DNA of 64,000 nucleotides from positions 192,001 to 256,000 of IMG/VR virus record IMGVR_UViG_3300021431_000075. The stretch is one strand, 5' to 3'. Positions 2,505 to 32,047 of this stretch are shown here, piece by piece. A program made the position numbers and the translations under genes. The notes under the pieces are model-generated. The model saw nothing but the letters and a program-made list of their open reading frames with translations. It was not told the origin of the DNA and did no database searches. The DNA comes from a virus. Its lineage: Duplodnaviria > Caudoviricetes. Every line of letters begins with the position of its first letter. The stretch's first letter is position 1.

Positions 2505-4183
2505 GGAAACATTGGATAGTCGTCTATCTCGTCATAGATATTGCTGTCCGTATCAGTCGGATAATCTCCGGGCTTGCATGTGGAATCCTTGTCGTTATCT
2601 ATGATTCTTTTCATGCCAAACGCTGAACAAACACTACTGTAGCATCTATCAAGAGTCTCTTTGAAACTCTCGTCAGAACCGTTGTTCTCATAAAATCTCA
2701 ACGCGTACAGAACCGCATTCCCAGAAAGAGTCTTCACGACTTCTTCCATAGAGACAATATCATAGTATTGCTTATCCGAAACAGGAATGTCAGTGACATT
2801 ATCAGCACACAACCACCGTCCTTCCTTCATATCAACGGGCCAGACATGATAAACATCATCACATTTCTGCTGAATCCTGAAGATTTTCTCAGTTCTGCTA
2901 TCTTTGACAAACACTCCGGCATCGAAATCTGCAATCTTGATTTCATCCACCTTCTTTGTTTCCGGATTCCAGACATATCCTTCTTCTTTCAACATTTCAT
3001 TGAACGTATCAATGTCCTTGCTGGTTGCAGGGAACATCTGCACATCCTTTATGACCACGAACCCGCCGGCATCCAAGTCAAAGTTTTCATCTTCTTCCAT
3101 GTCATCGCTGGCGCAAATATAAAGCCGTATAACACCAGTTGTCTTGTTCCTGTCATGGTATGGACCGATAAACCGTTTCCCGTCTCTAATCAAAGAAACC
3201 ATATCTCCGTCCTTCAGCATATCAGAACTCCACAACTCTGTCACGCCGGAAAGCATATCATAAGTCTTTTCAAACTCGCTTCCATTCAAAGCAACCAGAT
3301 GATACTTTCCATCCTCCACATCCTTAACCTTGTACACGATTCCGTTAGGACAACCGCCGATGACGATAAAGTCATCTTTCTTGAAACGACAATCCTCATC
3401 ATCCGAATCGCTATGCCCCGCAATATCCATTCCCGCTTCTAACGAAATCTGAACAGGCTTCTTGGCTTGATCATCCCACTTGTACCCGTTAAAGAACATC
3501 GTTGCTCTATGATGAGCAATCTCGTGGCATTCCGCCATTGTAACAGACGGCGCAAAATAAGTTTCTTTCTCAACAGTAAATGTTTCTTTCTTTCCGATAG
3601 CAAGAACACACTCGCAACTCACCTTGTACATTCCGGAAAGAGAAATCTGTAGAATGTCAAGAATGCCTATGAACACATCGGAAGAACCCTTCGGGCTAAA
3701 CCGAACAACATCACCCGTCATTAGGTCGTCCTCGCTAAAAGCACGGAAATTCTCAGAAACTATCGCCGGAGAATAACTCAGGTCTATCAAGCAACCGTTA
3801 TACGGATTCTCGATGACATTGGCAAACTTGCACTTGAACACTGTTCCCTCCTTTGTATCATTAAACGGCTTCGTGCAAATATACCACTGTCCGGGAACCA
3901 GCGTCTTTATGACAGACTTGACTTCCGGTTTCTGTTCATGGCTTTCCTGCTTCTGAACCGCGTCCGTGTTTTCAAGATGATTATTATCGTCACATGCAAC
4001 CTTCTCTACATTCAAGAGAGCCATCATCTTGTGACTGCAAAACGGACAGTTGATTCTTGCGCCGGCAGCTCCGGAAATACCGTGTTCATTCTCGATATCT
4101 TCCGTGTCATACTCAAACACAGCACCGCACTCTGGACATGTAGCCCTGTATCTCATGCTTCCACACTTGATTAGTTTAATCAT
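2501..4183 (-). CDS. Hypothetical protein with N-terminal Zn-ribbon and repeated modules
   Basis: CPECG...CPFC at the N-terminus; two related modules ending GYKWD/GYVWN. Confidence 0.75.
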   Translation of the reverse strand: MIKLIKCGSMRYRATCPECGAVFEYDTEDIENEHGISGAAGARINCPFCSHKMMALLNVEKVACDDNNHLENTDAVQKQESHEQKPEVKSVIKTLVPGQWYICTKPFNDTKEGTVFKCKFANVIENPYNGCLIDLSYSPAIVSENFRAFSEDDLMTGDVVRFSPKGSSDVFIGILDILQISLSGMYKVSCECVLAIGKKETFTVEKETYFAPSVTMAECHEIAHHRATMFFNGYKWDDQAKKPVQISLEAGMDIAGHSDSDDEDCRFKKDDFIVIGGCPNGIVYKVKDVEDGKYHLVALNGSEFEKTYDMLSGVTELWSSDMLKDGDMVSLIRDGKRFIGPYHDRNKTTGVIRLYICASDDMEEDENFDLDAGGFVVIKDVQMFPATSKDIDTFNEMLKEEGYVWNPETKKVDEIKIADFDAGVFVKDSRTEKIFRIQQKCDDVYHVWPVDMKEGRWLCADNVTDIPVSDKQYYDIVSMEEVVKTLSGNAVLYALRFYENNGSDESFKETLDRCYSSVCSAFGMKRIIDNDKDSTCKPGDYPTDTDSNIYDEIDDYPMFP

Positions 4184-4238: not shown

Positions 4239-5126
4239 TTAGAACAATCCGTGCTCTTCCGGCTCATAGTTCAAGTACAAAGACTCGTACACCATCGTGT
4301 CCCTGGACTTGCCAATCACCCTACGGAAAGACGAGTTTCCGCTGATGATATACATATGCTTCTTATACAGACATGCGGGAACCTTGTACGTCAAGTCTTC
4401 GTCTCCAGCCTTCCCTGCATAGCTCATAGCCCACTTACACCTTTTCTTGTTCGCGTCATCCAGCCATCTAAACAGTTCTGCATTGTCAAACCCTCCGAAG
4501 TACATCCCCTTGGTATTCGCATAAGGCGGATCCAGATACACGAAATCACCATTCTGCGGACACACATCGGCAAACGTTCTGCATATGAACTCGACTTGGT
4601 TCCTGTTCAGCAATCTTGACCATTCCGTAACTATCCTTCCAAGACTATCCGGATGAATTCCGTCCCTTGTTATGTGGAACGAATTGTTAAAATCGCCGGC
4701 AGAATTGTATCTCGGCATCCCGTTCGTTGTCGTCCGCATGATGAACATAAAGTCCAGAGGACTATGTTCCTTGTTATACCGTTCTCTAATGCTGTTGAAG
4801 AACGAGCGCTTGAACGCCTTGTCATGGTTGCCGTCGTTCATCTGGTGCCATAAATCCGAATAATGCGAAACAACCATTCTTGGACAATCCCTAATAGACT
4901 TCCAGAGATTGATTAGACCGTCGTTCAAATCAGAAGCAATGAACTTTCCGACATGATGCTCGCCGGACTCCATCAAGCAGCGGAGTACGCTACCGCCACC
5001 AATGAACGGCTCATAGTAAGTGCTTATCGTGTCGGGAAACTTGGAAACTATCTCTCCGCACTGGCTCCGCTTAGAACCGGACCACTTGATGACCGGCTCG
5101 AAAGATGTGCTCGTGAACTGTCCCAT
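4239..5126 (-). CDS. Dam-like (D12 class) DNA adenine methyltransferase, orphan
   Basis: KWSGSKR, YYEPFIGGGSV (motif I) and VYLDPPY (motif IV). Confidence 0.9.
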   Translation of the reverse strand: MGQFTSTSFEPVIKWSGSKRSQCGEIVSKFPDTISTYYEPFIGGGSVLRCLMESGEHHVGKFIASDLNDGLINLWKSIRDCPRMVVSHYSDLWHQMNDGNHDKAFKRSFFNSIRERYNKEHSPLDFMFIMRTTTNGMPRYNSAGDFNNSFHITRDGIHPDSLGRIVTEWSRLLNRNQVEFICRTFADVCPQNGDFVYLDPPYANTKGMYFGGFDNAELFRWLDDANKKRCKWAMSYAGKAGDEDLTYKVPACLYKKHMYIISGNSSFRRVIGKSRDTMVYESLYLNYEPEEHGLF

Positions 5127-5765: not shown

Positions 5766-5897
5766 TTTATTAACGGCTCCTATATGAAAAGAGCTGTACT
5801 CTTTTTCAGGTTACAAATATAGTTCTTTTATTCGGAACCAGCAAGAAATATAAAAATAATTTAACATTTATTTGGATTGTCTCACATCTTTCAAATT

Positions 5898-5965
5898 AAA
5901 AAACCTGCGCGCTTCACAGCGCACAGGCACAAAAATAATCTAAATCTTAAATTACCATGAAAAAC
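5898..5965 (-). ncRNA. Putative sRNA unit A1 (GUGA-loop terminator family)
   Basis: -7 TAACTTTGCA (rc 5970-5979), -33 TTGCA (rc ~5998-6002), hairpin 5904-5927 with GUGA loop followed by a U-run. Confidence 0.7.
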
Positions 5966-6022
5966 ACTTTGCAAAGTTAATAACTTTATTTCATTCATGC
6001 AAGAAAAAATCAAAAAAATAAT

Positions 6023-6093
6023 AAAAAATCCGGCGCGCTGTCACAGCGAACCGGATTCAAAAAAAAACTTTTTAATATACTTGCAAAAATTCA
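6023..6093 (-). ncRNA. Putative sRNA unit A2
   Basis: -7 TATCTTTGCA (rc 6098-6107), -33 TTGTC (rc 6126-6130), hairpin 6027-6057 with GUGAC loop plus U-run. Confidence 0.7.
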
Positions 6094-6164
6094 TCGCTGC
6101 AAAGATAGTGATTATTTTTGAACCAGACAACATAAAAACAAGTCTTTTAACTTTAATTAACGCC

Positions 6165-6249
6165 AAAAAAATCTGGCTCGCTATCACAGCGAACCAGAAA
6201 CAAAAGTACTTTTTAAATTCAAATCAACATTATTAATTAAATAATCAAA
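6165..6249 (-). ncRNA. Putative sRNA unit A3
   Basis: -7 TATATTTGCA (rc 6254-6263), -33 TTGCA (rc ~6282-6286), hairpin 6172-6198 with GUGAU loop plus U-run. Confidence 0.7.
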
Positions 6250-6310
6250 ACTTTGCAAATATAGCGATTTTGATTTTTCTGTGCAAGAAAATAATACATT
6301 TTTATGAATT

Positions 6311-6388
6311 AAAAAAACCGGCGCGCTGTCACAGCGAACCGGCTAAAAACATAAAACCTAAGAGTAATGATAGTATGTTTGCCTTTCA
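6311..6388 (-). ncRNA. Putative sRNA unit A4
   Basis: -7 TATATTTGCA (rc 6393-6402), -33 TTGTC (rc 6421-6425), hairpin 6318-6342 with GUGAC loop plus U-run. Confidence 0.7.
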
Positions 6389-6444
6389 ACTCTGCAAATA
6401 TATAGACTTTTTTCGAAACTGACAAGAAAAAACAAAAAAATTTC

Positions 6445-6538
6445 AAAAAAAAAAAATGTCCGCGCGCTGTCACAGCGAACGGACACAACCAAATATGTAT
6501 TGTAATCGTTCACATATTTAATAGAAATATCCATCAAA
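6445..6538 (-). ncRNA. Putative sRNA unit A5 (imperfect promoter, abuts the IS607 left end)
   Basis: Hairpin 6457-6485 with GUGAC loop plus a long U-run; only an imperfect -7 element (ATTATTTGCA, rc 6543-6552). Confidence 0.55.
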
Positions 6539-6614
6539 AATATGCAAATAATTTTAAACTATTGTAGTAAAAATCAGTAACATTAATGGTTAAAACTTTT
6601 TAAACATAAATGTT

Positions 6615-7205
6615 ATGGATTACTACATAAAGTTATCAGACTATGCGAAGCGTTTCGGAGTGACATACCGGACTGCATGGAACCGCTACAAGCGCGGACA
6701 GTTTCCAGATGCTATAATAGACGAGACGAATCACATTTGCATACCAATCAAGCATTTTGTAAGCGATGAAAACATCTCTGTTGCAGTGTATGCACGCGTA
6801 TCTTCGTCAGAGAATAAGAGTAATCTTGACAGCCAAGCAGAACGTCTTGTGAACTATTGCATGGCTCGCGGCTACAAGGTTTCAAAGGTCGTAAAGGAAG
6901 TCGGTTCGGGGTTGAACGACGAGCGACCGAAGCTTGACAGTTTATTGAAGGACAGAAGCATAAAAATCATAGTCGTTGAACACAAGGACCGCTTCTCAAG
7001 ATTCGGTCTCAATTACATACAGACTCTGTTGAGCATGGATGACAGGAAGATAGAGATAGTTAACGAGTCTGGCGATGACAAGGAAGACTTGATGCAGGAC
7101 TTTGTCTCTATAGTGACTTCATTTTGTGCAAGGCTCTATGGGTTGCGTAGGAATAGAAGAAGGACAGAGAAGTTGATTCAGGAACTTCAGAATGAAGATA
7201 AATAA
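6615..7205 (+). CDS. tnpA: IS607 serine-recombinase transposase TnpA
   Basis: N-terminal HTH (LSDYAKRFGVTYRTAWN), YARVSS catalytic motif, EVGSGLN, VEHKDRFSRFG, SFCARLYG. Confidence 0.95.
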   Translation: MDYYIKLSDYAKRFGVTYRTAWNRYKRGQFPDAIIDETNHICIPIKHFVSDENISVAVYARVSSSENKSNLDSQAERLVNYCMARGYKVSKVVKEVGSGLNDERPKLDSLLKDRSIKIIVVEHKDRFSRFGLNYIQTLLSMDDRKIEIVNESGDDKEDLMQDFVSIVTSFCARLYGLRRNRRRTEKLIQELQNEDK

Positions 7206-7266
7206 TAATAGAATAATATAGAAATCTTTATCGAAGATAAATAATATAGAACAATATAGAAATCTT
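7194..7266 (+). repeat. ~35-bp imperfect tandem direct repeat between tnpA and tnpB
   Basis: GAAGATAAATAATAATAGAATAATATAGAAATCTT (7194-7228) versus GAAGATAAATAATATAGAACAATATAGAAATCTT (7233-7266). Confidence 0.85.
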
Positions 7267-7279
7267 CATATAAAATATA

Positions 7280-8977
7280 GTGTCTGAACATAAGCATCAT
7301 AGAAGAAAAGTAGAAAAGAAGTCACAAAGAAAGATTTCTTCAAGTTCTTCTGTCTCTAATTCAAAGAATAAGAAGAAAAGACAGCCAAAGAAGCAGACTT
7401 TTGATGCTATGGGAATAATGCTTCGGATTTATCCGAACAGCAAGACACAGGAAGACTATATACTTCGTTCTTGTGGATGCGCTCGTCTTGTCTACAACAA
7501 GATAGTTGCGGACTATGAGTTGAAGAAAGAGCAAAGCTTAAGAGAATGGAAGAACAGTGAAACAGAGCATAAGTATCCGAAATACGGTTCGAAAGAAGGA
7601 AATGCTGTTTTGAACATGCTTAAAACCAATGAAGATTACTCGTTTCTTAAGGATGTCCATTCGAAGATGCTTCAGCAGGCAGTCTTGAATTTCTCGACCG
7701 CATTGTCAAACCATATAAGGTTCCCAGAGGATTTTGACGAGCCTGTGTTCAAGAAGAAAAGTAGACACAATGATTCGTTCCGCATTCCTATAGATGCGAT
7801 TCCCGGAAGCAATGGCAAGAAAGGAATACAATGTGTATATGGAAACAGAATATCGATTTGCTCTGAACTGACGGACGTTCTGTTTAAGTGCTCAAGACGT
7901 GACGAGAAGTATCTGAACAAGAACCAGAAGAAGATACGAAGCATAACAGTTTCTGTTGCTCCGGACGGGAAGATGTATGCTTCTGTTCTTATCGTTCCGC
8001 GCAATATAGACGTTGAAGATTGCGATATGATATGCGGTCTTGACTTGGGGCTTAAGGAGCATACGATTGAGCATCATCAGAAGATGTTCATTGATGATGA
8101 CGGCTTTGTTTCTCTTGCAGATAGTAATGTTGAGTATGTTCATATGCCGAACTTGAACAACTACAAGGATGAGAACGAAAAAGAACGAATGTTCAACAAG
8201 AACGGCGTTACAAGGCTTGAGCACTACAATAAGAAGTATATACACTGGCAGAAAGTTCTTTCAAGGACAGAGTATAATGCAAATACAAGAACTACATCAA
8301 GAAATAAAGACAACGATAAGAAACGAAACTATGACAGGGATAGTTTTCTAAACAAGAGAAGACTGAAGAATCTTGCACAATACAAGTTGAAGAGGGCAAC
8401 AACCAAGCCGTTCGGCAAGAAGCGCAAGAAGAATACATCCAAGCAAAATACAAATGTTGTATCTGAATGCAACAGACCCGTATGGCAGTACTCATCAAAC
8501 CGCCACGAGCGAATAAGGAAGCGCGCGGCGAAGTGGTCTGCGAAGATAGCGAACAAGAGAAGCGACTACAACCATAAGATTACGACAAGGCTTGTCAGAG
8601 AGAACAAGATGATAGTAACTGAGAACTTGAACGTGAGCGGTATGGTAAAGAACGGGAATCTGTCTAAAGCAATAATGAATGCTGGATGGAGCCAGTTCAC
8701 TCAGTTCTTGTCATACAAGGCTGAACGGTACGGAAGAATATACTACAAGATTGGAACATTCGCTGCATCTTCAAAGACCTGTCCGGTATGCGGGCACAAG
8801 TACAAGGAACTTACGCTTGCAGAGCGTGTGTGGACTTGCAAGAACTGCGGTGCTGTCATAAACAGGGATGAGGGTGCAAGTGACAACATAGTTTCGTTCG
8901 GAATAGAAGGATACAACGAGAAGCATCGAGCAGAACTTGACGAGCTTCGAATGAAAGACAGAGAACCAGAACTCTAA
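7280..8977 (+). CDS. tnpB: RNA-guided endonuclease TnpB (IS607), enlarged by insertions
   Basis: RIYP/GCARLVYN N-terminus, RuvC-I GLDLG, RuvC-II VTENL, Zn finger CPVC..CKNC, RuvC-III NRDEGASDNI. Confidence 0.93.
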   Translation: MSEHKHHRRKVEKKSQRKISSSSSVSNSKNKKKRQPKKQTFDAMGIMLRIYPNSKTQEDYILRSCGCARLVYNKIVADYELKKEQSLREWKNSETEHKYPKYGSKEGNAVLNMLKTNEDYSFLKDVHSKMLQQAVLNFSTALSNHIRFPEDFDEPVFKKKSRHNDSFRIPIDAIPGSNGKKGIQCVYGNRISICSELTDVLFKCSRRDEKYLNKNQKKIRSITVSVAPDGKMYASVLIVPRNIDVEDCDMICGLDLGLKEHTIEHHQKMFIDDDGFVSLADSNVEYVHMPNLNNYKDENEKERMFNKNGVTRLEHYNKKYIHWQKVLSRTEYNANTRTTSRNKDNDKKRNYDRDSFLNKRRLKNLAQYKLKRATTKPFGKKRKKNTSKQNTNVVSECNRPVWQYSSNRHERIRKRAAKWSAKIANKRSDYNHKITTRLVRENKMIVTENLNVSGMVKNGNLSKAIMNAGWSQFTQFLSYKAERYGRIYYKIGTFAASSKTCPVCGHKYKELTLAERVWTCKNCGAVINRDEGASDNIVSFGIEGYNEKHRAELDELRMKDREPEL

Positions 8978-9110
8978 AAACTGGCTGCCCTTGAGTTCAG
9001 GGAGACGGGACGTGGAGATGACCTATAGGAAAACGCATTCTTTGAATGGACATGTGAGTACCAAGTCACCGATGAATCGTCAAAAGAAAGTAAACATACG
9101 GGATTCTATG
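8978..9110 (+). ncRNA. Putative TnpB omega/reRNA scaffold
   Basis: Lies directly 3' of tnpB; CCCTTGAGTTCAGGG hairpin, then GTGGAG ... CGATGAA motifs that resemble IS607 TnpB reRNAs. Confidence 0.6.
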
Positions 9111-9297
9111 AATTTCTATGTTCTACAGAACTATAGAACACAAAAATTGAAAATTCCCAAATCAATCAATCAGTAATCTCAAGATATCTTCTCACATCAT
9201 CCTTCTTGTAATGGCTCATGATGTAGCCATCTATCTTGTCATACAACTCTGAATAAAGAGCCGAGAACTTATTGCCATTCTTGATTACAGATGACCA

Positions 9298-9506
9298 TGC
9301 TGGCAGAGAAGCACAGCACCGCCAAGATAAGGACTTTGATAAAATGAGGATTATCGGAGCAAAGCCCACTCGAAGCGGTGCTGAACAGTGGGAAACTGAG
9401 CGAATACATACCTACATGAAGAATCATAGAGGTAAACCCACACATTATTGTGCTGGAACACAATAATGACTCTTACCAAGCGACTGGCGTTTTAGGCTCT
9501 GCAGCA
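9298..9506 (+). ncRNA. Candidate structured ncRNA with pseudoknot, family unknown
   Basis: Closing stem 9298-9308/9496-9505; stem 9314-9322/9375-9383 crossed by 9365-9370/9387-9392; further hairpins; G-U pairs favour the + strand. Confidence 0.5.
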
Positions 9507-9554
9507 GTTGCTTTTCTTAAATAACGATGAAAAGATTTTTATAATTAACTTTGA

Positions 9555-10646
9555 CTATTCAGACTCTCTCATCAAGTCGTGCAACCCGGGGATTTCATCG
9601 ACAACAAGCTTGTCAAGAAGCTCCATCTCGCATCCGGACTGCATAATATGCTTGTCATAAGCATCGATTTCTTCATGCTTCATCAGACGTGTCAGATACT
9701 TGTGGAACGGAAGCGGCATACCTTTGTATATACCTTCACGGTCGATGCTCTTATGATAGAACTCTCCCAACTTGTGCTTGGAATTGTCAGAAAACCTGAC
9801 AGCGCTGAACTCATATCCCTGCAGTACGAACCACTCTACCTTAAGATCAAGCGCCGTCTCGAACATTCCGTCATTGCAGATATCAAGAATCTTTCCATAC
9901 AAAGAGTCATCACCATCAAAGTAATACACAATCTCATCCGAGTTGAATGCCGCCATCTTCAAATCATTCGGACAACAAAGCATATGATCGATATACTCAG
10001 CAAGCGACTTCATCAGGTTCTTCTCTACAGATATGGTCCTTGCTGGATTCAGCTTACCGAAGATGACCTGACGGCTGTACTTCGACTCTGAAATGTAATC
10101 GAGCATGAAGCCGGAACAGAACTGTGCCAAAAAATCCCGGTATGTTTTCTGCTTGATAACCCCACACTTGCACAAAGTCTGGAAGTTCGCGTTCCTCATG
10201 TCAATGGAAATGAAACGCTTTCCGACATTCTGCATATTATAGATTCCCTTGCTTCCACAAACAGGCTTCACGACATAGTTTGTCTGGAACGGCAACACCT
10301 TCAAATTGTTAAACTCCTTGTACGCATCGGACTGCTCTACTGAGCGAATAACGCTATCCCGCGTCTCATAGTACTCCTGAAGAAACTTGGAAGCCTTCTC
10401 CGCAAAGTCTTGACCTTCATAGAGCCTGTTGATGTTGCACACGAGATTGCACCATTTCGTCTGTGCTCCGTACGTGTCTTCATACAACGACAAAGAATGG
10501 CGAAAATTCGCCTCGTCGCATCCGTCAATCGGAATCTTGTAGTCGCTTGCGAACCTTGCCGCAAGATTGAAATCATAAAACATATACCAGTTGTCGGAAT
10601 AGTTACTCACCTTGGTGATATCTATCAAATCACTATTTTTGCTCAT
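9555..10646 (-). CDS. Hypothetical protein, possible polymerase-palm-like fold
   Basis: 363 aa; ISIDMRNANF and AFNSDEIV resemble palm motifs A and C (weak). Confidence 0.65.
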   Translation of the reverse strand: MSKNSDLIDITKVSNYSDNWYMFYDFNLAARFASDYKIPIDGCDEANFRHSLSLYEDTYGAQTKWCNLVCNINRLYEGQDFAEKASKFLQEYYETRDSVIRSVEQSDAYKEFNNLKVLPFQTNYVVKPVCGSKGIYNMQNVGKRFISIDMRNANFQTLCKCGVIKQKTYRDFLAQFCSGFMLDYISESKYSRQVIFGKLNPARTISVEKNLMKSLAEYIDHMLCCPNDLKMAAFNSDEIVYYFDGDDSLYGKILDICNDGMFETALDLKVEWFVLQGYEFSAVRFSDNSKHKLGEFYHKSIDREGIYKGMPLPFHKYLTRLMKHEEIDAYDKHIMQSGCEMELLDKLVVDEIPGLHDLMRESE

Positions 10647-10727
10647 ACTAATAATAGTTTAAATTGTTTAATTTCCACTCAAAGCCATTATCATTTTTTA
10701 AAACAGAGTCGAAAACACTCATACCGT

Positions 10728-10985
10728 TTAGCCAATGCTTTTTTCATGTTTCAATAATTTCTCAAACTCCTGTAGAGATGTTTCTATTTGTTCAAGATTA
10801 TAGTTTAACTCTTCATTTTCCGGACAATCTACAAGAACGCCATACAGCACAGTCGCAATATAATTGAATATCTCTATAAGAGTTCCATTATGCACATAAG
10901 GAATGTATGGCTGAAAATCAGCAACCAATTGTCGCAATCTGTCCAAATTTTTTCTTTGTCTTTTAGTCATAATTCTTTTAGTCAT
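10728..10985 (-). CDS. Hypothetical protein
   Basis: Start moved to MTKRIM at 10985 to avoid overlap with the upstream gene. Confidence 0.55.
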   Translation of the reverse strand: MTKRIMTKRQRKNLDRLRQLVADFQPYIPYVHNGTLIEIFNYIATVLYGVLVDCPENEELNYNLEQIETSLQEFEKLLKHEKSIG

Positions 10986-11026
10986 AATTAATTCATTACC
11001 CGTATCATCTATCTCGGAAAACAAGT

Positions 11027-11818
11027 TCACGGCTTCTCCACAGTGAACCTCTCGATGTAGAATGCATCTTCCTTCCGATTGTACGAAATGGTTGCCAGAA
11101 TCGTCTTGTACTTGACTCTCTTTGCCTTGCCGTTCACGCATGGCATATAGTATGTCCAGCCGTCATAGTATCTCTCCACGACTTCTCTGAAGAAGAAACG
11201 AACATTGTCCGTGTTCAAGTATCCTTCTTCTTTCGGATTGCTGACAAACACACAACCATCCTCGTCCGGATTGCGCTCGATGTACAGACGAACCTGCTCT
11301 CCGCTATTTGCGGCAGAGATAATACGCTCCTTTGCATCCTTTGCTTCTGCCATCTTCTTCTGTGCTTCAGGAGAGTAAACAAGCCCACCATCTACAAGAT
11401 AGCCCCTGCTACGGAGCACGTCTGCGACATACTCACGATGTTCTTCACTAACGCACCCGTAATACCACTCCAGATAATCTGTGTCCGTGCAAGCTTCGAT
11501 TGCACCGCCCTTGTACTTTCCGAAACGGAACGTATCCACATTATCCCATACATACTCGTAGTGTGTCCATGAGCGGGTCTTTCCGCGCAGGCTCTCGTCA
11601 ACCTTGCATCCGGGGTACTTGCTCATCGCAGTCTCCTTTGAGGTGGATATCTTTCCGTGATACGTGTACTCTGTGATATGAAGCGTCTGACCGCCGCCGG
11701 CATCAACAACCTTCTTGTTCTCTGACCACAATGTGTAGAACTTGGTCGCGAAACCGATGACATATCCAGTAGTATCGGTATTCTCGTTTGTTTCTTTTGC
11801 TGCAATAGATGTGTTCAT
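11027..11818 (-). CDS. Hypothetical phage protein with FGKYKG motif
   Basis: 263 aa; FRFGKYKG...YLEW motif; Bacteroidota promoter immediately upstream. Confidence 0.75.
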   Translation of the reverse strand: MNTSIAAKETNENTDTTGYVIGFATKFYTLWSENKKVVDAGGGQTLHITEYTYHGKISTSKETAMSKYPGCKVDESLRGKTRSWTHYEYVWDNVDTFRFGKYKGGAIEACTDTDYLEWYYGCVSEEHREYVADVLRSRGYLVDGGLVYSPEAQKKMAEAKDAKERIISAANSGEQVRLYIERNPDEDGCVFVSNPKEEGYLNTDNVRFFFREVVERYYDGWTYYMPCVNGKAKRVKYKTILATISYNRKEDAFYIERFTVEKP

Positions 11819-11848
11819 GACTTATATTTGGCTTTGTTGTTAAACGGT

Positions 11849-11883
11849 ATGCAAATATAATTATTAGCTCAACTCCATGCAAG
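11849..11883 (-). promoter_or_regulatory. Bacteroidota sigma-A-type promoter
   Basis: TATATTTGCA (-7) and TTGCA (-33) on the minus strand, upstream of 11818. Confidence 0.7.
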
Positions 11884-11980
11884 AAAAATCCTGAAAAACT
11901 TTCTTCAACAAGTGATTTTTAACTCTCATTAACAAACTGATGACATATATGTTGCAAAACAACAACCACAAAAAACAAAA

Positions 11981-12014
11981 CAGACCATAGAACCAAAACG
12001 GCATCTATGGTCTG
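11981..12014 (-). terminator. Intrinsic terminator
   Basis: CAGACCATAGA/TCTATGGTCTG stem with a T-rich tail on the minus strand. Confidence 0.7.
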
Positions 12015-12069
12015 AACAAAATAATAATTATTGAAACAACAGCTAAAATCTGTACATTTTAATCAAGTT

Positions 12070-12207
12070 CTAATAGAACTGCGCGACGTATTTCTTGTAA
12101 TCATCGTCTATAATCATTCTCACATATCCTTCATCCGCATTCAACATTTCCGCAATCTCTTGGACAGAGGTTCCGCAACGCCATAGCATTAAAATCTGAT
12201 CATCCAT
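12070..12207 (-). CDS. Small HTH DNA-binding protein
   Basis: MDDQILMLWRCGTSVQEIAEMLNADEGYVRMII fits an HTH pattern; start reassigned to 12207. Confidence 0.6.
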   Translation of the reverse strand: MDDQILMLWRCGTSVQEIAEMLNADEGYVRMIIDDDYKKYVAQFY

Positions 12208-12279
12208 TTGTTCTATATATTTAAGAGTTAAAAACAATACAATGTCTATATATTGTACTACTACATCACAAAATAGTTT

Positions 12280-12352
12280 AAAAAAACTGCGGATGCTATC
12301 ACAGCACCCGCAGCCCAACATACTTTTAAAATTATAATGAAAAAATCAAATG
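12280..12352 (-). ncRNA. Putative sRNA unit B1
   Basis: -7 TATCTTTGCA (rc 12357-12366), -33 TTGCA (rc ~12385-12389), hairpin 12287-12313 with GUGAU loop plus U-run. Confidence 0.7.
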
Positions 12353-12399
12353 TTGCTGCAAAGATATGAACTTTTTTTCATCCGTGCAAGAATTTATAT

Positions 12400-12484
12400 A
12401 AAAAAAAAAAGCGATCGTTATCACAACGACCGCTCACGAAAATCAAATTGCATAATCACTTAATAAATGCTACAAAAGCTTTAC
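12400..12484 (-). ncRNA. Putative sRNA unit B2
   Basis: -7 TATCTTTGCG (rc 12489-12498), -33 TTGCA (rc ~12517-12521), hairpin 12410-12434 with GUGAU loop plus U-run. Confidence 0.7.
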
Positions 12485-12553
12485 TCGCCGCAAAGATATG
12501 AACTTTTCACAAAATATGCAAGAGTTTGCTTCATTTTTTTCCAAACAATCAAC

Positions 12554-12630
12554 AAAAAAGCCGCTACTTATCACAAGCAACGACTCTCCCTTTTTTAACA
12601 ATTAACAAAATTATAACACCACGATTTATA
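12554..12630 (-). ncRNA. Putative sRNA unit B3 / terminator of the upstream MTase gene
   Basis: Hairpin 12559-12585 (AGUCGUUGCUU GUGAU AAGUAGCGGCU) with three G-U pairs on the minus strand; no clear promoter of its own. Confidence 0.55.
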
Positions 12631-12648: not shown

Positions 12649-13401
12649 TCACAATAAAGTGTTCAACCTGTTGCTCATAATGTCGAAGAACTTCTCATCC
12701 AGTTCTATACCGATGAACTTCATTCCACAGTTAAGAGCAGCAACTCCAGTACTTCCGCTACCGGCAGTGAAGTCAAGAACGGTCCCTCCGACCGGACAAT
12801 AAGACTTACACAGGAACTCCATCAGCTCTATCGGCTTCTGTGTAGGATGCAGCTGGTCCTGTCTTCTCCACTTCTGAGGAAAGTCAAGCACGCTGTCAGG
12901 ATGCCTCGTCCCCTTGTTGTCAGTCTCAACACCTCGGATTCCGTAGTTCATATTGTTGGTCTTGTTCGGAGTGTACGCACGCTTGTAGGGTTCACCATCT
13001 CTCATCTGCGGACAATAATACGCCGCCGAGTTTCCGAACACAAGAATGTTCTCATGCTTCTTCATCGGCATGTACTTTGCCGTGAACGGGGAACCGCACT
13101 TGCTTTTCTTCCATATGAGCTCGTATCTGTACTTCTTCTCGTTGCTCAAAGCAAGTTTGTGCGTGAAAATGCCGCCGGAAAACAGGACTATGTTCCCGTT
13201 ATCGACAACAAGAGAGTCAAGACACTTCCACATGTCAGTGAAGTCTATGATGCTCTTGTCGAACTCCGAAGAAAAGATTCCATAAGGCGGATCGCATATG
13301 ACAGCATCGACCTTGACTCCCTGCTCGATAAGAATTTTCATCTCCTCGATACAGTCTCCGTTTATAATCGTATATCTCGGATCCTCTATCTTCTGTCTCA
13401 T
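12649..13401 (-). CDS. N4/N6 DNA methyltransferase (beta class), orphan
   Basis: CDPPY, HPTQKP, VLDFTAGSGSTG; ATGA overlap with the upstream gene places the start at 13401. Confidence 0.9.
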   Translation of the reverse strand: MRQKIEDPRYTIINGDCIEEMKILIEQGVKVDAVICDPPYGIFSSEFDKSIIDFTDMWKCLDSLVVDNGNIVLFSGGIFTHKLALSNEKKYRYELIWKKSKCGSPFTAKYMPMKKHENILVFGNSAAYYCPQMRDGEPYKRAYTPNKTNNMNYGIRGVETDNKGTRHPDSVLDFPQKWRRQDQLHPTQKPIELMEFLCKSYCPVGGTVLDFTAGSGSTGVAALNCGMKFIGIELDEKFFDIMSNRLNTLL

Positions 13402-14279
13402 TTGCATTTTCGATTTGTTTTTCCTTTTTTGTGCCACCGGTTCATCATCTTGCATTCCTTTGTTTCATCGCCGCTGTTTTTTTGATTCTCTTTCAAATCT
13501 TCCATATCGCTTGTCCATCTATTCTTGTCGATAGTGCTCGACAAGACACCAAGAACAAAAAGCCACATATTAATGAATTTTCTAAAACACATAATCGCGC
13601 TTATATCATTCCTGAACCACAACGGACTAATGAAAGCCTGCCCACTATAAAAGAAACCCAAATTCTGTTGCGTAATCGCGCTGACGAACACATACTGCGG
13701 ATACAAGCCGTCTGACGACTTGGTCTTATGCATGCCAAGCGACGAGCAACTCATCAGAACAACCGGACCCTTGATTATTGACAAACTCTCGACAATCAAT
13801 TCCGGACTCTTCGCAAGCATTCCTGCATACAGATACCAGTTGCGCACATCTTGAGGATTGTCTGTCACCCCCTTCTCAACCGCACGGCTATCCCATGTAT
13901 TGTTATACAAATTGCAAATCATCTCAAGTCGCGCAAAACACTTGGCTGTATATGACCGGATTCTTTCGCAGTGCAAAGCATACTCGGAAGTTCTGGTCAA
14001 CATATCGACAGAGCTATCATCCGGCGTCATGGTGTCAGAACCGAAACTCCCTTGAAATATGCTGCAAGTGCAAAACTTAACACTGAACTCAGCCAAAATT
14101 GTCGATTCCACGCATTCATAGTCCTCAGGCTTCGCACGCTTCAGTTCAGCAGAGGTATCGACATCAACCATGAATATGCCTGTAGAACCGCAGTTCCGGA
14201 AAACGAACCTGTGCTTCGACATCATGGACAAAAAGTACTCACACTGTCCTGTATTCTTAACCGATATTGCGACTCTCAT
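13398..14279 (-). CDS. Hypothetical protein
   Basis: 293-aa ORF translationally coupled to the MTase. Confidence 0.65.
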   Translation of the reverse strand: MRVAISVKNTGQCEYFLSMMSKHRFVFRNCGSTGIFMVDVDTSAELKRAKPEDYECVESTILAEFSVKFCTCSIFQGSFGSDTMTPDDSSVDMLTRTSEYALHCERIRSYTAKCFARLEMICNLYNNTWDSRAVEKGVTDNPQDVRNWYLYAGMLAKSPELIVESLSIIKGPVVLMSCSSLGMHKTKSSDGLYPQYVFVSAITQQNLGFFYSGQAFISPLWFRNDISAIMCFRKFINMWLFVLGVLSSTIDKNRWTSDMEDLKENQKNSGDETKECKMMNRWHKKGKTNRKCK

Positions 14280-16521: not shown

Positions 16522-18753
16522 TTAAACAAAACTTATATATTTGCCAGAATAGTCAACATATGCAGCAGGACCTATACGGACAACGCCATCCCTGTCAACA
16601 ACAGGTCTGAACCTTATCCACTCGTCAAGCAGCTGCTTGCCTCCAGCATCAAATATGTTGTACATAAAATAGTCATAACTTCCGGTTTTCTCTATGGCAA
16701 CCAGCTCGTCAGGAACAAGCGTGTATATCTGCGTCAGTCTTTCTCTTTCGCCAATCTTCGGACTCATTAGTTTTCCGCTCTTGTATGCAAGGACATCACA
16801 ATAAATCTTCGGACTCATTAGCGTTCCGCCCTTGTATGCAAGCACATCACCGTCGTTCTTGTCAAGCCGCGTGACGAACACGAAACCGTTTTCAGCCTTT
16901 CCTTTATATAAGAACCATTCATCGGAAACCAGCCTTAATGTCTTGTCATTAATGAAGTTGAGCATCCTTCCGCTATAACCACTGTCCAACGAGTCGTCGC
17001 CGGACTTTGCAACCGTCAAGAAACCGTCATCGCAGACATCACAGTACTTCAGATTGTCCTGAACAATCCCCTTTCCCCATTCTATCACCATAGTAGGGCT
17101 TCCAAGTTCACGCACAGCAGCAACAAGATTCGGACCTACGCAGTTTACAGAATAGAACCATTCATCAGAGCATTTCACTCCGGTACTGCTTACAAGTGTT
17201 TTCTTTGCATCATTCTTGAACCACTTCATGACTTCATAGAATTTGAAGTCGCCAAACCCCAAGTTAACCGAAACGTCATCGAAGCATTCCCCGCCAAAAA
17301 GCACTTTTCCGGACCCGGTGTCCATGAACTGCCAGCAACCGTTCTTCTTGAAAGCGTATATTCCACACTCTGGCCAGCCGCAGACATCGTCGAACCATTC
17401 ATCGGAAACAGGAGTTCCGTCTTCTCTCACAAACCTGCATGTGAAATCTGTGCCGTATGCGACTTTCGCGAAACCATTCTCCATAGCGTTGCTCTTTCCG
17501 GGAATCCAATTCTCCAACACAAGAGTGCCGTCCCTGTGGACGTAGTTGCTCTTTTTCCGAACCGGAATCCCGTGCTCATTGTAACACTCTCCTTCCTTAC
17601 AAGATCTGCAGACCAGTGCGACATCGCGCTTCTTTCCATGTCCAAAATCAATAAACTCATACCACTCGCTACATACGGGCTTTCCTGTCTTGTCAATGAA
17701 GTTGTACAATTTGTCCTTCATCACAACCGCGACACCATCAACGAAGTTCTCCATCCAGTCATAATTCTCCTTGCACAAAAACGTCCCGTCCGTTGACAAG
17801 AAATTGAACTCCTTGGAACCGCCGCGCTTGACCCATGCATATCCTTCGAAAAACAAAGGAGAACAACCCAAGAAATCTTCATTCGATAGAACTCTGCCGT
17901 CCATCGTGATATAGTTGCAGCATCCTTCCGTGAACTTGACATACAGCAAACCATCGGCGCAGAACTTAGGTCCGTACTTGAATTTCGGCAATACCACGCC
18001 GATGTCGCTCAATATGGTTCCGGACGAGTCAACCAGCGACATGCTCTCGCTCCCGACCCCTGTTCCGAAAGTTGTCACCACATATCTGCTGCCGGCTTCG
18101 TCAACCGCATCCATAAGCCTGATGCGGGAAGCGGCACGGACAAAGCTTCCCTGGAGCTTGCTGACATTCTCCTTGTTCAGAACCCCGTCATCGCCACCTG
18201 CATAGAAGGACCATATGTTCTCGTCGTACGCGATGCATATTGCATATCCGGTCCGCTCATGGTTGTCCCGGCTTACCAGCTCGCTTGCAACCATGCGCAC
18301 GTTGCGGTTTTTCATACACACATTGCTTGACATGAGAACATCAATCATGGATGCAGCCATGAACGCGAATGAATCTTCATCAGAATGGTCATTGCACACA
18401 TACATGACAAATCCAAGATTCTTTGCCCGGCATAACATCACGGACGCGTCCTGACGAGAACGGCTTGTTGAATAAACGCCGATAATCTTCGAGCAATCGT
18501 TATCAAGAAACTCCATATCCGCATCCCATCCGTCAACATATCCGAGATTCTTCATTCTTTCAAGAACCGGCTCCATGACAGAACCATAAAAAATCTCATT
18601 GATTGCGGACTTGTCATTATCGTCAACATCGAAACTGAAAACGAACTCATAGCACGAGCCGGACTGTTCCTGCATATCGTCCACAACTTCATCAGTTTCC
18701 ACATCACCAAGCAGGGACTCGTTCATGCATATGATTTCCGGATGTTCTTTCAT
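16522..18753 (-). CDS. WG-repeat protein, paralog 1 of 8
   Basis: Start reassigned to MKEHPE (18753). NESLL N-terminus; repeats F.EG.A.V...YNFI...G...WF. Confidence 0.85.
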   Translation of the reverse strand: MKEHPEIICMNESLLGDVETDEVVDDMQEQSGSCYEFVFSFDVDDNDKSAINEIFYGSVMEPVLERMKNLGYVDGWDADMEFLDNDCSKIIGVYSTSRSRQDASVMLCRAKNLGFVMYVCNDHSDEDSFAFMAASMIDVLMSSNVCMKNRNVRMVASELVSRDNHERTGYAICIAYDENIWSFYAGGDDGVLNKENVSKLQGSFVRAASRIRLMDAVDEAGSRYVVTTFGTGVGSESMSLVDSSGTILSDIGVVLPKFKYGPKFCADGLLYVKFTEGCCNYITMDGRVLSNEDFLGCSPLFFEGYAWVKRGGSKEFNFLSTDGTFLCKENYDWMENFVDGVAVVMKDKLYNFIDKTGKPVCSEWYEFIDFGHGKKRDVALVCRSCKEGECYNEHGIPVRKKSNYVHRDGTLVLENWIPGKSNAMENGFAKVAYGTDFTCRFVREDGTPVSDEWFDDVCGWPECGIYAFKKNGCWQFMDTGSGKVLFGGECFDDVSVNLGFGDFKFYEVMKWFKNDAKKTLVSSTGVKCSDEWFYSVNCVGPNLVAAVRELGSPTMVIEWGKGIVQDNLKYCDVCDDGFLTVAKSGDDSLDSGYSGRMLNFINDKTLRLVSDEWFLYKGKAENGFVFVTRLDKNDGDVLAYKGGTLMSPKIYCDVLAYKSGKLMSPKIGERERLTQIYTLVPDELVAIEKTGSYDYFMYNIFDAGGKQLLDEWIRFRPVVDRDGVVRIGPAAYVDYSGKYISFV
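16753..16850. repeat. 51-bp in-frame tandem duplication
   Basis: Encodes DVLAYKGGTLMSPKI / DVLAYKSGKLMSPKI. Confidence 0.9.
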
Positions 18754-18766
18754 ATCTTGTCTATAA

Positions 18767-20956
18767 TTATATAATGCTTGTGAAATTTCCAGAGTAGTCA
18801 ACAAACGCCGCAGGACCCACTCTTACAATGCTGTCCCTATCTGCCACAGGCCGGAACCTTGTCCATTCAGAAAGCAGTTGCCTTCCGTCAGCGTCGAACA
18901 GGTTGTACAGCATGGACTTGTTATCGTCGTCAAAAATCTCTACAACGACCAGCTTGTCCGGAACGACTGTGTATATCCGGTTCAACTTCTTTCTTTCCTT
19001 TCCGAACAACAGCACACCATTGCAAGTCAGCACGTTGTTAGTATTCACGACCACGAACCCGCTCTGCATCTTTCCGGATCGATCAAGCCAAGAATCAGAA
19101 ACAAAACTTCCATCCGGCCTGATATAATTGATTTTTTCATCCCCGTGCTCATCCTTCATCTTCACTTTCGCATATCCGCCGATAAAATGTTCACAATCGG
19201 TCAGGTTGTCAACAATAACACCGCCGCCCCACTTGGCAACCGTGCGCATTCCGTATAGTATATTACTATAGCAAACACAATCATAACCGATATATTTCAC
19301 AAAGGGCTTATAGTCATCCACGCACTTCTTTCCATCATCAGAAACAAGATTGTACATGTTCCTGTTGTCAGTTCCGCTACCGATACTCGTCACCAAATAG
19401 AAAGTCTTGTTGAAATCCTTGCTATACACCTCACGATCAACGTCATCGAACATCTCGCCGTCAAAGAGAACCTTGTTCGTACCAGCATCCATAAACTGCC
19501 ACATGTCATATCCGTTGGACTGTCTCTTCTCGAAAGCAAAGACTCCGTTCTGCGGATAGCCGCACACGTTCTTGAACCACTCCTTCGACACGAGGCTTCC
19601 GTCCGCCCTCATGAAATTATAGAGACCGTCATTGTTGCTCAACTTCGCGAACCCATTCGCCATATTTCTGGACGATTTCGAAACCCACTCGTCCAGAAGA
19701 AGGTTGCCGTCCACGTCAGCATAGTTGCTGACAAAACCGAGATTGTTAGAAGAACCGTCATGCTTGTAGACATGCATGATGCCGTTGTCTCCGATTTCGA
19801 CGAGGTCGTACCAAGTGCTCCACCTCAGGACGCCCTTGTTGTCGATGATGTTCTTTTTATCGTTGTACCCGACAACCGCATATCCGTTCTTAAAATCGGA
19901 AGCATATGAAAACTGCTTTCCGCCAAGTACGTTTCCGTCCTTGTCAAAGAAAGACCAAACGCCGGGCCTGATATTCACCCACACATATCCGTCGTTGAAG
20001 CAAAATCCGCATCCGATACAGTTCTTTCCCAAAAGCAGCGAGCCGTCCTTCCTGATGAAGTTATATGATTCGGAGAAAAATGATATGCGCATAAGACCGT
20101 TGTCGAGGAACCTGCCCCATATAAACTGCCTGATGCTGTTGCACGGATATCTGCCCAGCACTTCCCCTTCCGAAGAAAGCAGCATCGCTGCAAGACTATC
20201 AACAGATTCGCCGAAAGTCAATGCCATATACCTGCTTCCCTCGTCATCATCGGCTTTCATGAGACCTATCATGCCGGCGGTCCTGACAAACTTGCCAGCA
20301 AACGACTCACAAACATCCCGGTCCAGATTTCCGCCATAATCACCAGCATAGAACAGCCACTTGTGCCTGAACATATCCTTCTGTACTTTCTGGAAATCTA
20401 TGTCGCCGACATCATCACTATCAAGACTTCCCACATAGCGGCGGATGACACAGAACTGCATGACCGCAGAGTCGTCAACCAGCTTGTCAACAACAAGACG
20501 AACTCCGGCATGCAAATCACAAAGACCGCCGAGAACAAGAGCATGAATCAGACTCGCGCAAACCGTTCCGAAAGAGTCTCCGCGCGCATCAGAGTTGTCA
20601 AGCCAGATGTCCATCGCGAACGTCGAGGAACCCCTCTTCTTATCCTTGTTCTCCATAAAGCACTTCGAATAAGTCTTGAGAATATCAAACCGAGATATAG
20701 ACTCAATCTTCTTATAGAACTTCCACGACTTGACAAAACCCTTTCCTCGCATCCTCTGAAGCCCGGATTCCATCAACTCGAAGAATATGTTCTTAATCAT
20801 CTGCGTTGTAAAAGAATGAATAGAATAAGTATTGAAGTCGAAAGTGAACCTGAAGCACACGTTGTCTGCAAATTCATTCTCATCAACATCAAGCACTTCG
20901 TCGCTGCCGATGTTGTCAAGCAGAGACTCGTTCAGATATATCGGTAACTTTTCCAT
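18767..20956 (-). CDS. WG-repeat protein, paralog 2 of 8
   Basis: LNESLLD N-terminus, WG-like repeats, shared C-terminus YNLFDADG..LL.EWT.F...VGP..VDYSG. Confidence 0.85.
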   Translation of the reverse strand: MEKLPIYLNESLLDNIGSDEVLDVDENEFADNVCFRFTFDFNTYSIHSFTTQMIKNIFFELMESGLQRMRGKGFVKSWKFYKKIESISRFDILKTYSKCFMENKDKKRGSSTFAMDIWLDNSDARGDSFGTVCASLIHALVLGGLCDLHAGVRLVVDKLVDDSAVMQFCVIRRYVGSLDSDDVGDIDFQKVQKDMFRHKWLFYAGDYGGNLDRDVCESFAGKFVRTAGMIGLMKADDDEGSRYMALTFGESVDSLAAMLLSSEGEVLGRYPCNSIRQFIWGRFLDNGLMRISFFSESYNFIRKDGSLLLGKNCIGCGFCFNDGYVWVNIRPGVWSFFDKDGNVLGGKQFSYASDFKNGYAVVGYNDKKNIIDNKGVLRWSTWYDLVEIGDNGIMHVYKHDGSSNNLGFVSNYADVDGNLLLDEWVSKSSRNMANGFAKLSNNDGLYNFMRADGSLVSKEWFKNVCGYPQNGVFAFEKRQSNGYDMWQFMDAGTNKVLFDGEMFDDVDREVYSKDFNKTFYLVTSIGSGTDNRNMYNLVSDDGKKCVDDYKPFVKYIGYDCVCYSNILYGMRTVAKWGGGVIVDNLTDCEHFIGGYAKVKMKDEHGDEKINYIRPDGSFVSDSWLDRSGKMQSGFVVVNTNNVLTCNGVLLFGKERKKLNRIYTVVPDKLVVVEIFDDDNKSMLYNLFDADGRQLLSEWTRFRPVADRDSIVRVGPAAFVDYSGNFTSII

Positions 20957-20973
20957 CTCTTGTCTAATTCACA

Positions 20974-23133
20974 TTATATCAAGCATGCGATCTCACCAGA
21001 GCAGTCAACATAAGCACCAGCGCCGACCCTTATGATTCCGGACTTGTCAGCAGCAATCCAGAAATTCGTCCATTTGTCAAGCAACTGGTCACCTTCGCAG
21101 TCGAATATGTTGTACAGTCGACCCTTTTTGACTTCCTTCTCCACAATGACAACCTTGTCCGGGACAACCGCCTGCACCCTTTTCAATATGCCGTCGCAAC
21201 CGTCAAGCAGAAGTTTGCCGTTACTGCACAGCACGTTGTATTCCAGTTTTCCGGACTGCGCATAATTCACTATGCAAAAACCGTCATTCAACGTTTCTTC
21301 TGTATACAAGAACCACTTATCCGACACAAGCCGGCATTCCTTGTCGATAAAGTTGTACTCGATGTCCCCGACGCCCTTTCTGCGTCGCTCAACCCTTGCA
21401 TATCCTCTTTTGTAACATCCGATATTCTTGATGTTCTCAAGCATCACGTCGCCGCCCCATTTAGCGACCATCGTCGGAGACGTCTCATACATCCTTGCGG
21501 CAACCATGCCGTTTCCAATATCCTGCATATACTCAAACATACCGTCCATAGCCTTGACACCGTCCTTCGAAATCAAGTTCATGGCAAAAGACCGGCTTCT
21601 TCTTTTATCGCCATCATGCAAAGTATAATTTTCAACAGTATAGTTATCTTCACCCACGCCCAAGTGAACATTGTCAAACTCCTCTCCGCCGAACAGAGGC
21701 TCCAGCGTATCCACGTCCATAAACCTCCACTTATCATCAGGCGCATATTTGTACGCTATCACGCCACGTTCCGGACAGCCGAGAACTTGCGCGAACCATC
21801 GTCTGGACAAAAGATTTCCATCTTGCTTCAGATAGTTGTAAGCATCCCTTCTCTTATCCCAAAGCAATGCGAAACCGTCCTCCATAGGCTCGCAATCATA
21901 GTCAACCCATTTTCTCATAATCGTCTTGCCGTCCATGTCTATGTAATTATACAACGAATCGCCTTTGACTTTCTTTCCAACTCTGAATATCATACCAGAA
22001 GTTCCTGTTCCGGGTTCTATATCTTCATACCACTTTCTAAAGATGGTCTTTCCGCTCGTGTCGATGACGTTTTCCTTGCCATTGTCGTTGACCACGGACA
22101 ATCCGCCATCAAACTCGCTCATATGGCTAAACCATTTATTACATAGAATATTTCCGGCGGCATCAACCATGTTGTTGTGCGAGTTGCCGTCTTCAACCAG
22201 CGCGTATCCGTCTGAGAAAGTCTTGCTACACTCGTTATAATCCCTATCCGACAACAGGGTTCCGTCCTTGCGGATAAAATTATATAAACATCTTTCGAAT
22301 TTCACATATAGCAAGCCGTTGTCAAGAAACTTCGGACCGTAATCAATTTCGTCCAGATTCCCAGGATAAGATGCAATCATTCTGCCGTCCCGTCCGAACA
22401 TATAAAATTTATCATTATTGTTCATATCATAATGCAATAGCGCGAACAGCACTATGTATATGCCAGTCTCATCATCGACCGCCGACATCAATCCTGAGGA
22501 AGAAGCTGTCCTAACAAAGCCGCCGGCAAATGAAACGCATGCGCTCCGGTCAATATTCATGTCATCTTTTCCCGCATAAAAATACCATTCCTTGTTTTCA
22601 AAATACACGCACCGGATTTCATCTGTTTCGCTACCGTTCTCGAATCTTGTCAATCCGAGCCTTACCCCATAATCCCCCGACATGATGCCACTTGACTTAA
22701 ATGAAAATAACAGCACTCCGCTAACATATCCAAGCACATCCTCACTGAACGAACGACTGTCAAAAACAACATGCACGGAAAATGTGTCTGTATTCTTGTA
22801 GTATTTCTTTGCAGGTTGATAATTATGCATGTACCTTGAAAACCTATCAATAAAATTCGAAAGAGCGGACGAGCCGAACTTATTGTCAACCTTCTTGATG
22901 CAAGTCCACGACCTGACAACTCCCTTCCTCGCCATTGTTGCAAGCACAGGCTCTATGACCGTGTCGAAGAACATGCTCTTGACATTCAAAATGTCACTTC
23001 TGAAATTGAACGAGAACTTATACTCGACTACGTTTCCGTTGTCAAAATCGTCATTGTCGTCAGTCACCTCGTCTATGCCGATGCCGTCAAGCAGGGACTC
23101 GTTCAAATATGCGCTATATGGATAATCTCTCAT
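20974..23133 (-). CDS. WG-repeat protein, paralog 3 of 8
   Basis: Same architecture as the neighbouring paralogs. Confidence 0.85.
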   Translation of the reverse strand: MRDYPYSAYLNESLLDGIGIDEVTDDNDDFDNGNVVEYKFSFNFRSDILNVKSMFFDTVIEPVLATMARKGVVRSWTCIKKVDNKFGSSALSNFIDRFSRYMHNYQPAKKYYKNTDTFSVHVVFDSRSFSEDVLGYVSGVLLFSFKSSGIMSGDYGVRLGLTRFENGSETDEIRCVYFENKEWYFYAGKDDMNIDRSACVSFAGGFVRTASSSGLMSAVDDETGIYIVLFALLHYDMNNNDKFYMFGRDGRMIASYPGNLDEIDYGPKFLDNGLLYVKFERCLYNFIRKDGTLLSDRDYNECSKTFSDGYALVEDGNSHNNMVDAAGNILCNKWFSHMSEFDGGLSVVNDNGKENVIDTSGKTIFRKWYEDIEPGTGTSGMIFRVGKKVKGDSLYNYIDMDGKTIMRKWVDYDCEPMEDGFALLWDKRRDAYNYLKQDGNLLSRRWFAQVLGCPERGVIAYKYAPDDKWRFMDVDTLEPLFGGEEFDNVHLGVGEDNYTVENYTLHDGDKRRSRSFAMNLISKDGVKAMDGMFEYMQDIGNGMVAARMYETSPTMVAKWGGDVMLENIKNIGCYKRGYARVERRRKGVGDIEYNFIDKECRLVSDKWFLYTEETLNDGFCIVNYAQSGKLEYNVLCSNGKLLLDGCDGILKRVQAVVPDKVVIVEKEVKKGRLYNIFDCEGDQLLDKWTNFWIAADKSGIIRVGAGAYVDCSGEIACLI

Positions 23134-23152
23134 CGCCTTTTCGTCAATTCAA

Positions 23153-25372: not shown

Positions 25373-25385
25373 TTCGCATATTCGA

Positions 25386-29809: not shown

Positions 29810-29827
29810 CTTTCCATATCGTCTCGA

Positions 29828-32032: not shown

Positions 32033-32047
32033 CTTCTCTATTGTCGT

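Follow-up and report, generated by a model that had tools for sequence, protein, structure and literature searches.

Tandem small RNA cassettes in a megaphage genome include a probable diverged relative of the FopS/GibS anti-start-codon RNAs

The 64,000-base window analyzed here corresponds to bases 192,001–256,000 of the virus record IMGVR_UViG_3300021431_000075 (Caudoviricetes), which is 673,114 bp in length with direct terminal repeats, and contains six promoter-bearing cassettes for putative small RNAs (sRNAs), A1–A4 and B1–B2, arranged in two tandem rows on the minus strand. Each cassette follows the same plan, with a Bacteroidota promoter (TTG-N18-21-TAnnTTTGC) followed by a U-rich body of ~35–55 nt, then a GC hairpin capped by a GUGAY loop, and then a U-run. 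The A1 RNA (window positions 5898–5967, 70 nt) is made up of a 5′ seed, a weak AU hairpin, the GC terminator hairpin with a GUGA loop, and the U-run, and its promoter (5972–6002) appears in the table of regular-expression matches as TTG-N20-TAACTTTG, then CAAA, then the start G. The remaining cassettes of the first row are A2 (6023–6130; promoter 6100–6130, RNA about 6023–6095, 73 nt), A3 (6165–6286; promoter 6256–6286, RNA 6165–6251, 87 nt), and A4 (6311–6425; promoter 6395–6425, RNA 6311–6390, 80 nt), and the second row contains B1 (12281–12389; promoter 12359–12389, RNA about 12281–12354, 74 nt) and B2 (12400–12521; promoter 12491–12521, RNA 12400–12486, 87 nt). The bodies of A2, A3, A4, and B2 are orphans: A2 and A3 have no ATG on their plus strands, and A4 and B2 carry a CAU at RNA nt 22–24 and 18–20, respectively. 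B1 carries UUUUUUCAU at RNA nt 10–18, a degraded form of the R1 seed known from the FopS and GibS sRNAs of Bacteroides. The initial annotation had proposed that several of these RNAs are antisense to start-codon-like regions and could block translation of host mRNAs such as those for SusC/TonB receptors, capsule, or defence.

Several observations bear on whether the cassettes are genuine transcription units. The canonical promoter pattern is found at only 64 sites in the 673-kb genome, seven of them in this locus, and six of those seven drive cassettes. A detector for a promoter, 25–95 nt, and a terminator in succession returned 10 units genome-wide, of which six are the cassettes described here. 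The hairpins show compensatory changes in 8 of 10 pairs with 94.6% of cells paired, values that 500 shuffles never reached and that no shift of the register approached. Among the terminators scanned in the phage and in host loci, the GUGAY loop was specific to this hairpin family, and the same scan led us to reject the loop as a general habit of terminators. None of the five open reading frames (ORFs; 43–79 aa) overlapping the arrays had a Pfam match. Contigs from three metatranscriptomes (X7, X12, X20) gave no usable cover of the arrays between 5500 and 13000 and are neutral on expression. At the sequence level, the cassettes are real transcription units, and because their promoters are intact and their terminators covary, we infer that they are expressed and maintained.

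A1 could be assigned to a known group. In Bacteroides thetaiotaomicron, 14 FopS sRNAs have been described, in which the 5′ seed consists of R1, common to GibS, and an extension, R1′, to which the difference in targets between FopS and GibS has been attributed (PMC11697453). The FopS seed pairs beside or across the start codons of susC and of other first genes of polysaccharide utilization operons, and in vitro FopS-10 acts as a sequence-specific block to translation that RbpB counteracts (PMC11697453). A1 matched the Rfam family BTncRNA_FopS (RF04319) over the whole model (1–71) with 37.8 bits and an E value of 7e-4, and was the sole match to this model in a scan of the whole 673-kb genome. 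The first 15 nt of A1, GUGUUUUUCAUGGUA (5953–5967, minus strand), are identical to nt 1–15 of the FopS consensus and of host and viral FopS genes, and the CAU at RNA nt 9–11 complements the plus-strand ATG at 5957–5959. The spacing from promoter to start (TTTG, 4 nt, G) is also that of the host FopS genes. Further FopS traits are seen in the A1 sequence, namely, a canonical sigma-ABfr promoter, a predicted Rho-independent terminator (GC hairpin, U6), and a length of 70 nt, within the 65–75 range, and nt 1–11 are unpaired in the predicted fold. In a BLAST search of Bacteroidaceae, 326 of 401 genomes matched the query; of the matches listed, most lay over the promoter and seed of A1 and the others over the A2–A4 promoters. 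The R1′ extension on the 3′ side of the seed (nt 12–21, then UUAAGGUUAA) is absent from A1. These comparisons indicate that A1 is likely a diverged FopS/GibS-group sRNA of the genuine anti-start-codon type, sharing the mode of action of FopS, as should follow from its seed, and not necessarily the susC targets, since A1 diverges from FopS after nt 15 and SusC targeting would not be simply inherited.

The relationship is less clear for B1, which scored 24.3 bits on the FopS model (E = 0.16) and may carry a copy of the same seed that has decayed or been re-tuned. ATGAAAAA is present in two bodies (P = 0.006 under body independence), although A1 and B1 may share ancestry. FopS-like sequences were also observed outside the phage in antisense orientation to the 5′ untranslated region or start of genes for HU-HIG (PF18291) DNA-binding proteins (L036:1501–1581, L037, L039, and L087, from the Prevotellaceae metagenome-assembled genomes (MAGs) G001 and G003), and one such gene begins AACC-ATG-AAAAACAC, which mirrors the R1 seed exactly. 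In Prevotellaceae, the FopS family may thus have arisen as cis-antisense RNAs or may have a class of targets here, as this arrangement hints.

The resemblance to start codons on which the initial annotation rested was then compared with chance. All five plus-strand strings quoted there are present, at 5937–5965 for A1 (ATG at 5957), 12324–12348 for B1 (ATG at 12337), 6353–6369 for A4 (ATG at 6367), 6486–6497 for A5 (ATG at 6495–6497), and 12457–12469 for B2 (ATG at 12467). They are not equivalent, as the A5 ATG is part of an inserted IS607-type element and belongs to no sRNA gene. Across the six bodies, six plus-strand ATGs were observed, compared to 3.7 in dinucleotide shuffles (P = 0.11), and four of the six hold at least one (P = 0.29). 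A weight matrix for positions −18 to +9, trained on 100 Prevotellaceae gene starts, gave P values of 0.07 for A1, 0.05 for A4, 0.07 for B1, 0.62 for A2, 0.41 for A3, and 0.45 for B2. For A1, the resemblance is real and has an explanation, as its plus-strand string, UUACC-AUG-AAAAACAC, is the mirror of a known anti-start-codon seed by virtue of the match to published R1. It is plausible for B1, and the remaining bodies are at chance level, the ATGs of A4 and B2 being ordinary because the DNA is A-rich. The caution that low complexity allows chance similarity was borne out, with composition explaining most of the class-wide resemblance. The likeness to start codons is genuinely inherited in one cassette, perhaps two, and should not be generalized to the array.

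Complementary sequences were sought for all bodies. Against the 673-kb phage genome, searches of the six bodies with blastn-short returned exact matches of at most 14 nt (E ≥ 0.06), and neither the phage, nor 28 SusC-like start regions from rumen Prevotellaceae, nor about 500 Bacteroidaceae genomes yielded a target. Duplex energies were computed for the full bodies of A1, A4, and host FopS and for the 21-nt seeds of A1, B1, and host FopS, against the 28 SusC-like start regions (from two rumen Prevotellaceae MAGs) and 74 others. Neither A1 nor A4 showed an excess on SusC, and the positive control, the FopS of these same MAGs, showed none either, indicating that the test was powerless; A4 had no pairing excess on SusC or control start regions. 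The B1 seed paired with SusC-like start regions slightly better than its shuffles (z = −1.75, 2 of 60 shuffles). Strong matches in the control start regions were dismissed as an artefact: retrieval of these loci by their FopS matches had brought in FopS-like copies that lie antisense to HU-HIG genes. The complement of the A1 seed, ACCATGAAAAACAC, with up to one mismatch, was found in three MAGs mostly within FopS genes themselves and in no SusC gene. In the candidate host genus (101 genomes), the complement of the A4 5′ end had 14 matches compared to 8 for the reversed control and was not enriched. No convincing Rfam family was obtained for A2, A3, A4, or B2, with only a weak BTnc201 match for A3 (24 bits, E = 0.05), and, promoter similarity aside, none of the four had a homologue among 401 Bacteroidaceae genomes or at any of the loci fetched. 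No motif or k-mer was common to the bodies above shuffles. By these comparisons, A2, A3, A4, and B2 appear to share only the promoter and terminator modules, with bodies unrelated to each other.

Two further hairpins of the same type, A5 and B3, were ruled out as sRNA genes, as both are promoterless gene terminators. A5 (6445–6489, minus strand; hairpin model R1, 55 bits), a hairpin with a U-run, ends the upstream minus-strand gene (stop at 9166), and B3 (12546–12590, minus strand) is the terminator hairpin of an N6/N4 DNA methyltransferase gene at 12649–13455. A5 is separated from the minus-strand genes upstream of it by the IS607-type insertion (6493–9138, plus strand), the boundary of which at 6493 stands 8 nt from the base of the hairpin. 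The insertion encodes a serine recombinase (6615–7205) and TnpB (7280–8977), with Pfam matches to Resolvase, OrfB_IS605, and Cas12f1-like_TNB, and a second copy, 88% identical, is present at G000:117441–120054 in the phage record. There are six TnpB-type genes (PF07282) in the phage, with further TnpB matches at 84546, 133011, 173991, and 309541 of the record (G000), and the TnpB of the IS607 element had no relatives in genome contigs. The inner hairpin GTTCGCTGTGACAGCGCGC is found in identical form twice (3376–3420 and 6354–6398) in an unrelated 31-kb viral contig (L008, IMGVR_UViG_3300012344_000052) and in four MAG contigs (L016, L019, L023, L015), with different outer stems, and in those contigs it stands at the ends of genes or of sRNA-like transcripts. 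It has the look of a terminator module that is mobile or under strong selection.

In the wider surroundings, two DNA methyltransferase genes flank the locus, one for a D12-class Dam-like enzyme (4239–5126, minus strand) and the other the N6/N4-type gene terminated by B3. Four genes between the arrays (9555–11818 and a small helix-turn-helix gene) matched no Pfam or PHROG family, and the 363-aa and 263-aa neighboring proteins had no relatives in viral contigs. A listed 83-aa ORF (12070–12321, minus strand) runs through the B1 terminator; the real gene near there likely encodes a helix-turn-helix protein of ~45 aa with a start near 12207 and a weak C-terminal match to DUF6115. Eight successive minus-strand ORFs of 719–760 aa (16522–34246) form an apparent tandem paralogue family, judged from the ORF list only. 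Another unit of promoter, short body, and terminator lies at 49549–49660 (minus strand), in which TTACCTTTGCACC precedes ~90 nt, a hairpin, and a T-run, and is possibly a further sRNA gene unrelated to the arrays.

Megablast of the locus against the phage collection gave no match, and parts of it are present in gut metagenomes of sheep, bovine, and goat origin. In a sheep-gut DNA run, contig joints skip 5847–5953 and 6023–6516 (window positions 5847–6516), with short sides of 20–27 nt, which could represent strain variation in the copy number of the A array or misassembly at repeats. Few genomes contain the exact core of the shared hairpin; they include MAGs of rumen Prevotellaceae and Prevotella and a Hadza Bacteroidales MAG. 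Given this habitat, and given that the hairpin core is common to rumen Prevotellaceae MAGs, the host of the phage is probably a rumen Bacteroidales bacterium of the Prevotella type.

Given the architecture of the cassettes and the homology of A1, the account we consider probable is that the locus holds six stand-alone minus-strand sRNA genes, of which A1 is of the FopS/GibS type and B1 possibly so, with the ATGs in the orphan bodies due to chance. Under this account, host RNA polymerase would transcribe A1 from its host-type promoter, and the single-stranded R1 seed at the 5′ end would pair through its CAU with the start codon of sequences of the AUGAAAAACAC type, so that start regions with UACCAUGAAAAACAC-like sequence would be candidate partners of A1. 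By analogy with FopS and GibS, the RNA would then block ribosome loading on host mRNAs. The original proposal that the sRNAs block translation of host mRNAs at start codons holds up in this form for A1, through its 15-nt identity to the R1 seed (PMC11697453), and found no support for the other bodies. Some results weigh against the account. The score of A1 is below the 56-bit gathering threshold of RF04319, compared to 56–77 bits for the FopS copies of Prevotellaceae host MAGs, and positions 16–33 of A1 share just 5 of 18 identities with FopS, compared to an average of 15.2 in viral copies (n = 104, among the matches listed). No target was identified for any body, with no complement longer than 14 nt in the phage genome, and the host is narrowed only by habitat and by the hairpin shared with rumen Prevotellaceae MAGs. 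In addition, the summed matrix P value of 0.02, carried by A1, A4, and B1, leaves room for anti-start pairing by A4.

That summed value, together with the individual values of A4 and B1 near 0.05–0.07, is also what speaks for a broader function, in which all six RNAs are anti-start-codon regulators built on one scaffold with six seeds, each silencing a different host mRNA. Bodies that are fully diversified between an unchanging promoter and terminator fit such a scaffold-plus-seed design, as does the pairing of the B1 seed with SusC (z = −1.75). We nevertheless regard this function as unlikely for the full set, as A2 and A3 lack any ATG and ATGs are not in excess across the bodies, A4 showed neither a pairing excess on SusC or control starts nor enrichment of its seed complement in the 101 genomes, and the orphan bodies had no homologue or long complement in any fetched sequence. 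The opposite possibility is that the bodies are filler and any function resides in the shared modules alone, with the units acting as insulators, sinks for host RNA polymerase, or decoys for a host RNA-binding protein, or being decaying duplicates of a captured FopS gene. Hairpins of this type do end protein genes, both here (A5 and B3) and in further contigs of viral or MAG origin, the bodies have no common motif above chance, and canonical FopS is a frequent passenger in viral contigs. Even so, six promoters and six hairpins have remained intact while the bodies diverged fully, a pattern that decay without selection would not produce, and none of the 104 other FopS-bearing viral loci among the matches listed has a tandem array, so that simple hitch-hiking would not predict one here; we therefore think it quite improbable that the bodies are without a role of their own.

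A conserved hairpin beside a variable segment, in a region with DNA methyltransferases, could also bring to mind clustered regularly interspaced short palindromic repeats (CRISPR), RNA mimics of the anti-CRISPR kind formed by solitary repeat units, or an array of type III antitoxin-like repeats. The U-run following the hairpin and the use of the hairpin to terminate protein genes argue strongly against this, and, in contrast to processed repeat arrays, the units have individual promoters. Moreover, when 185,579 species genomes were scanned for the exact core, single copies and no repeat arrays turned up, the copies sitting at the 3′ ends of genes or sRNAs in the Bacteroidales/Prevotellaceae contigs inspected. 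We give this relationship almost no credence. Returning to the account of six sRNA genes with one FopS/GibS-type member, a more ambitious version would have the megaphage use the host FopS scaffold as a programmable platform, with one ancestral anti-start-codon seed and five newly evolved ones, whose early expression under host-type promoters would silence several host mRNAs at once; we offer this tentatively and consider it doubtful.

Regulation by sRNAs in Bacteroidota is only starting to be understood, and FopS/GibS is the best-studied family there. If A1 is FopS-derived and its scaffold has been multiplied with new 5′ parts, phages would not only carry such RNAs but rework them, with possible reprogramming of host surface transporters or metabolism, and the array would provide natural cases in which seeds are exchanged while the scaffold stays fixed. 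Phage-borne sRNAs acting at host start regions have a precedent in base-pairing sRNAs, such as DicF, encoded by enterobacterial prophages, which pair at the start region of host mRNAs and block translation. Those RNAs are unlike this array in that they belong to another phylum, are Hfq-dependent, are encoded by single genes, and have no sequence relation to it. The likeness to FopS (RF04319) is closer, extending to an RNA of ~70 nt, a canonical Bacteroidota promoter, a seed left single-stranded at the 5′ end, and a GUGA-type loop in the terminator hairpin. The differences are that A1 is without the R1′ extension UUAGAUUUAAGGUUAA, which is 97–99% conserved in the 104 viral copies among the matches listed, and that there are six cassettes here, set in two tandem rows, with 5′ parts that are unrelated in five of the six. 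A1 and GibS (RF04182) have in common the R1 seed GUGUUUUUCAU for pairing with translation initiation regions, but GibS is 142 nt in length with a second seed, R2, and a non-canonical promoter, and A1 scored 21.9 bits on the GibS model against a cut-off of 115. A gene for a protein with an RNA recognition motif (RRM) was looked for in the phage genome and none was found. One Caudovirales phage with FopS has already been mentioned in the literature, where the family is described as multicopy (PMC11697453), and we found the canonical FopS gene in at least 104 IMG/VR contigs, with no tandem array at any of the 104 FopS-bearing viral loci among the matches listed; sRNA arrays are likewise not mentioned in a 2026 review of jumbo phages. 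FopS in phages was already known, and what is new in this locus is a tandem, seed-diversified array on a megaphage.

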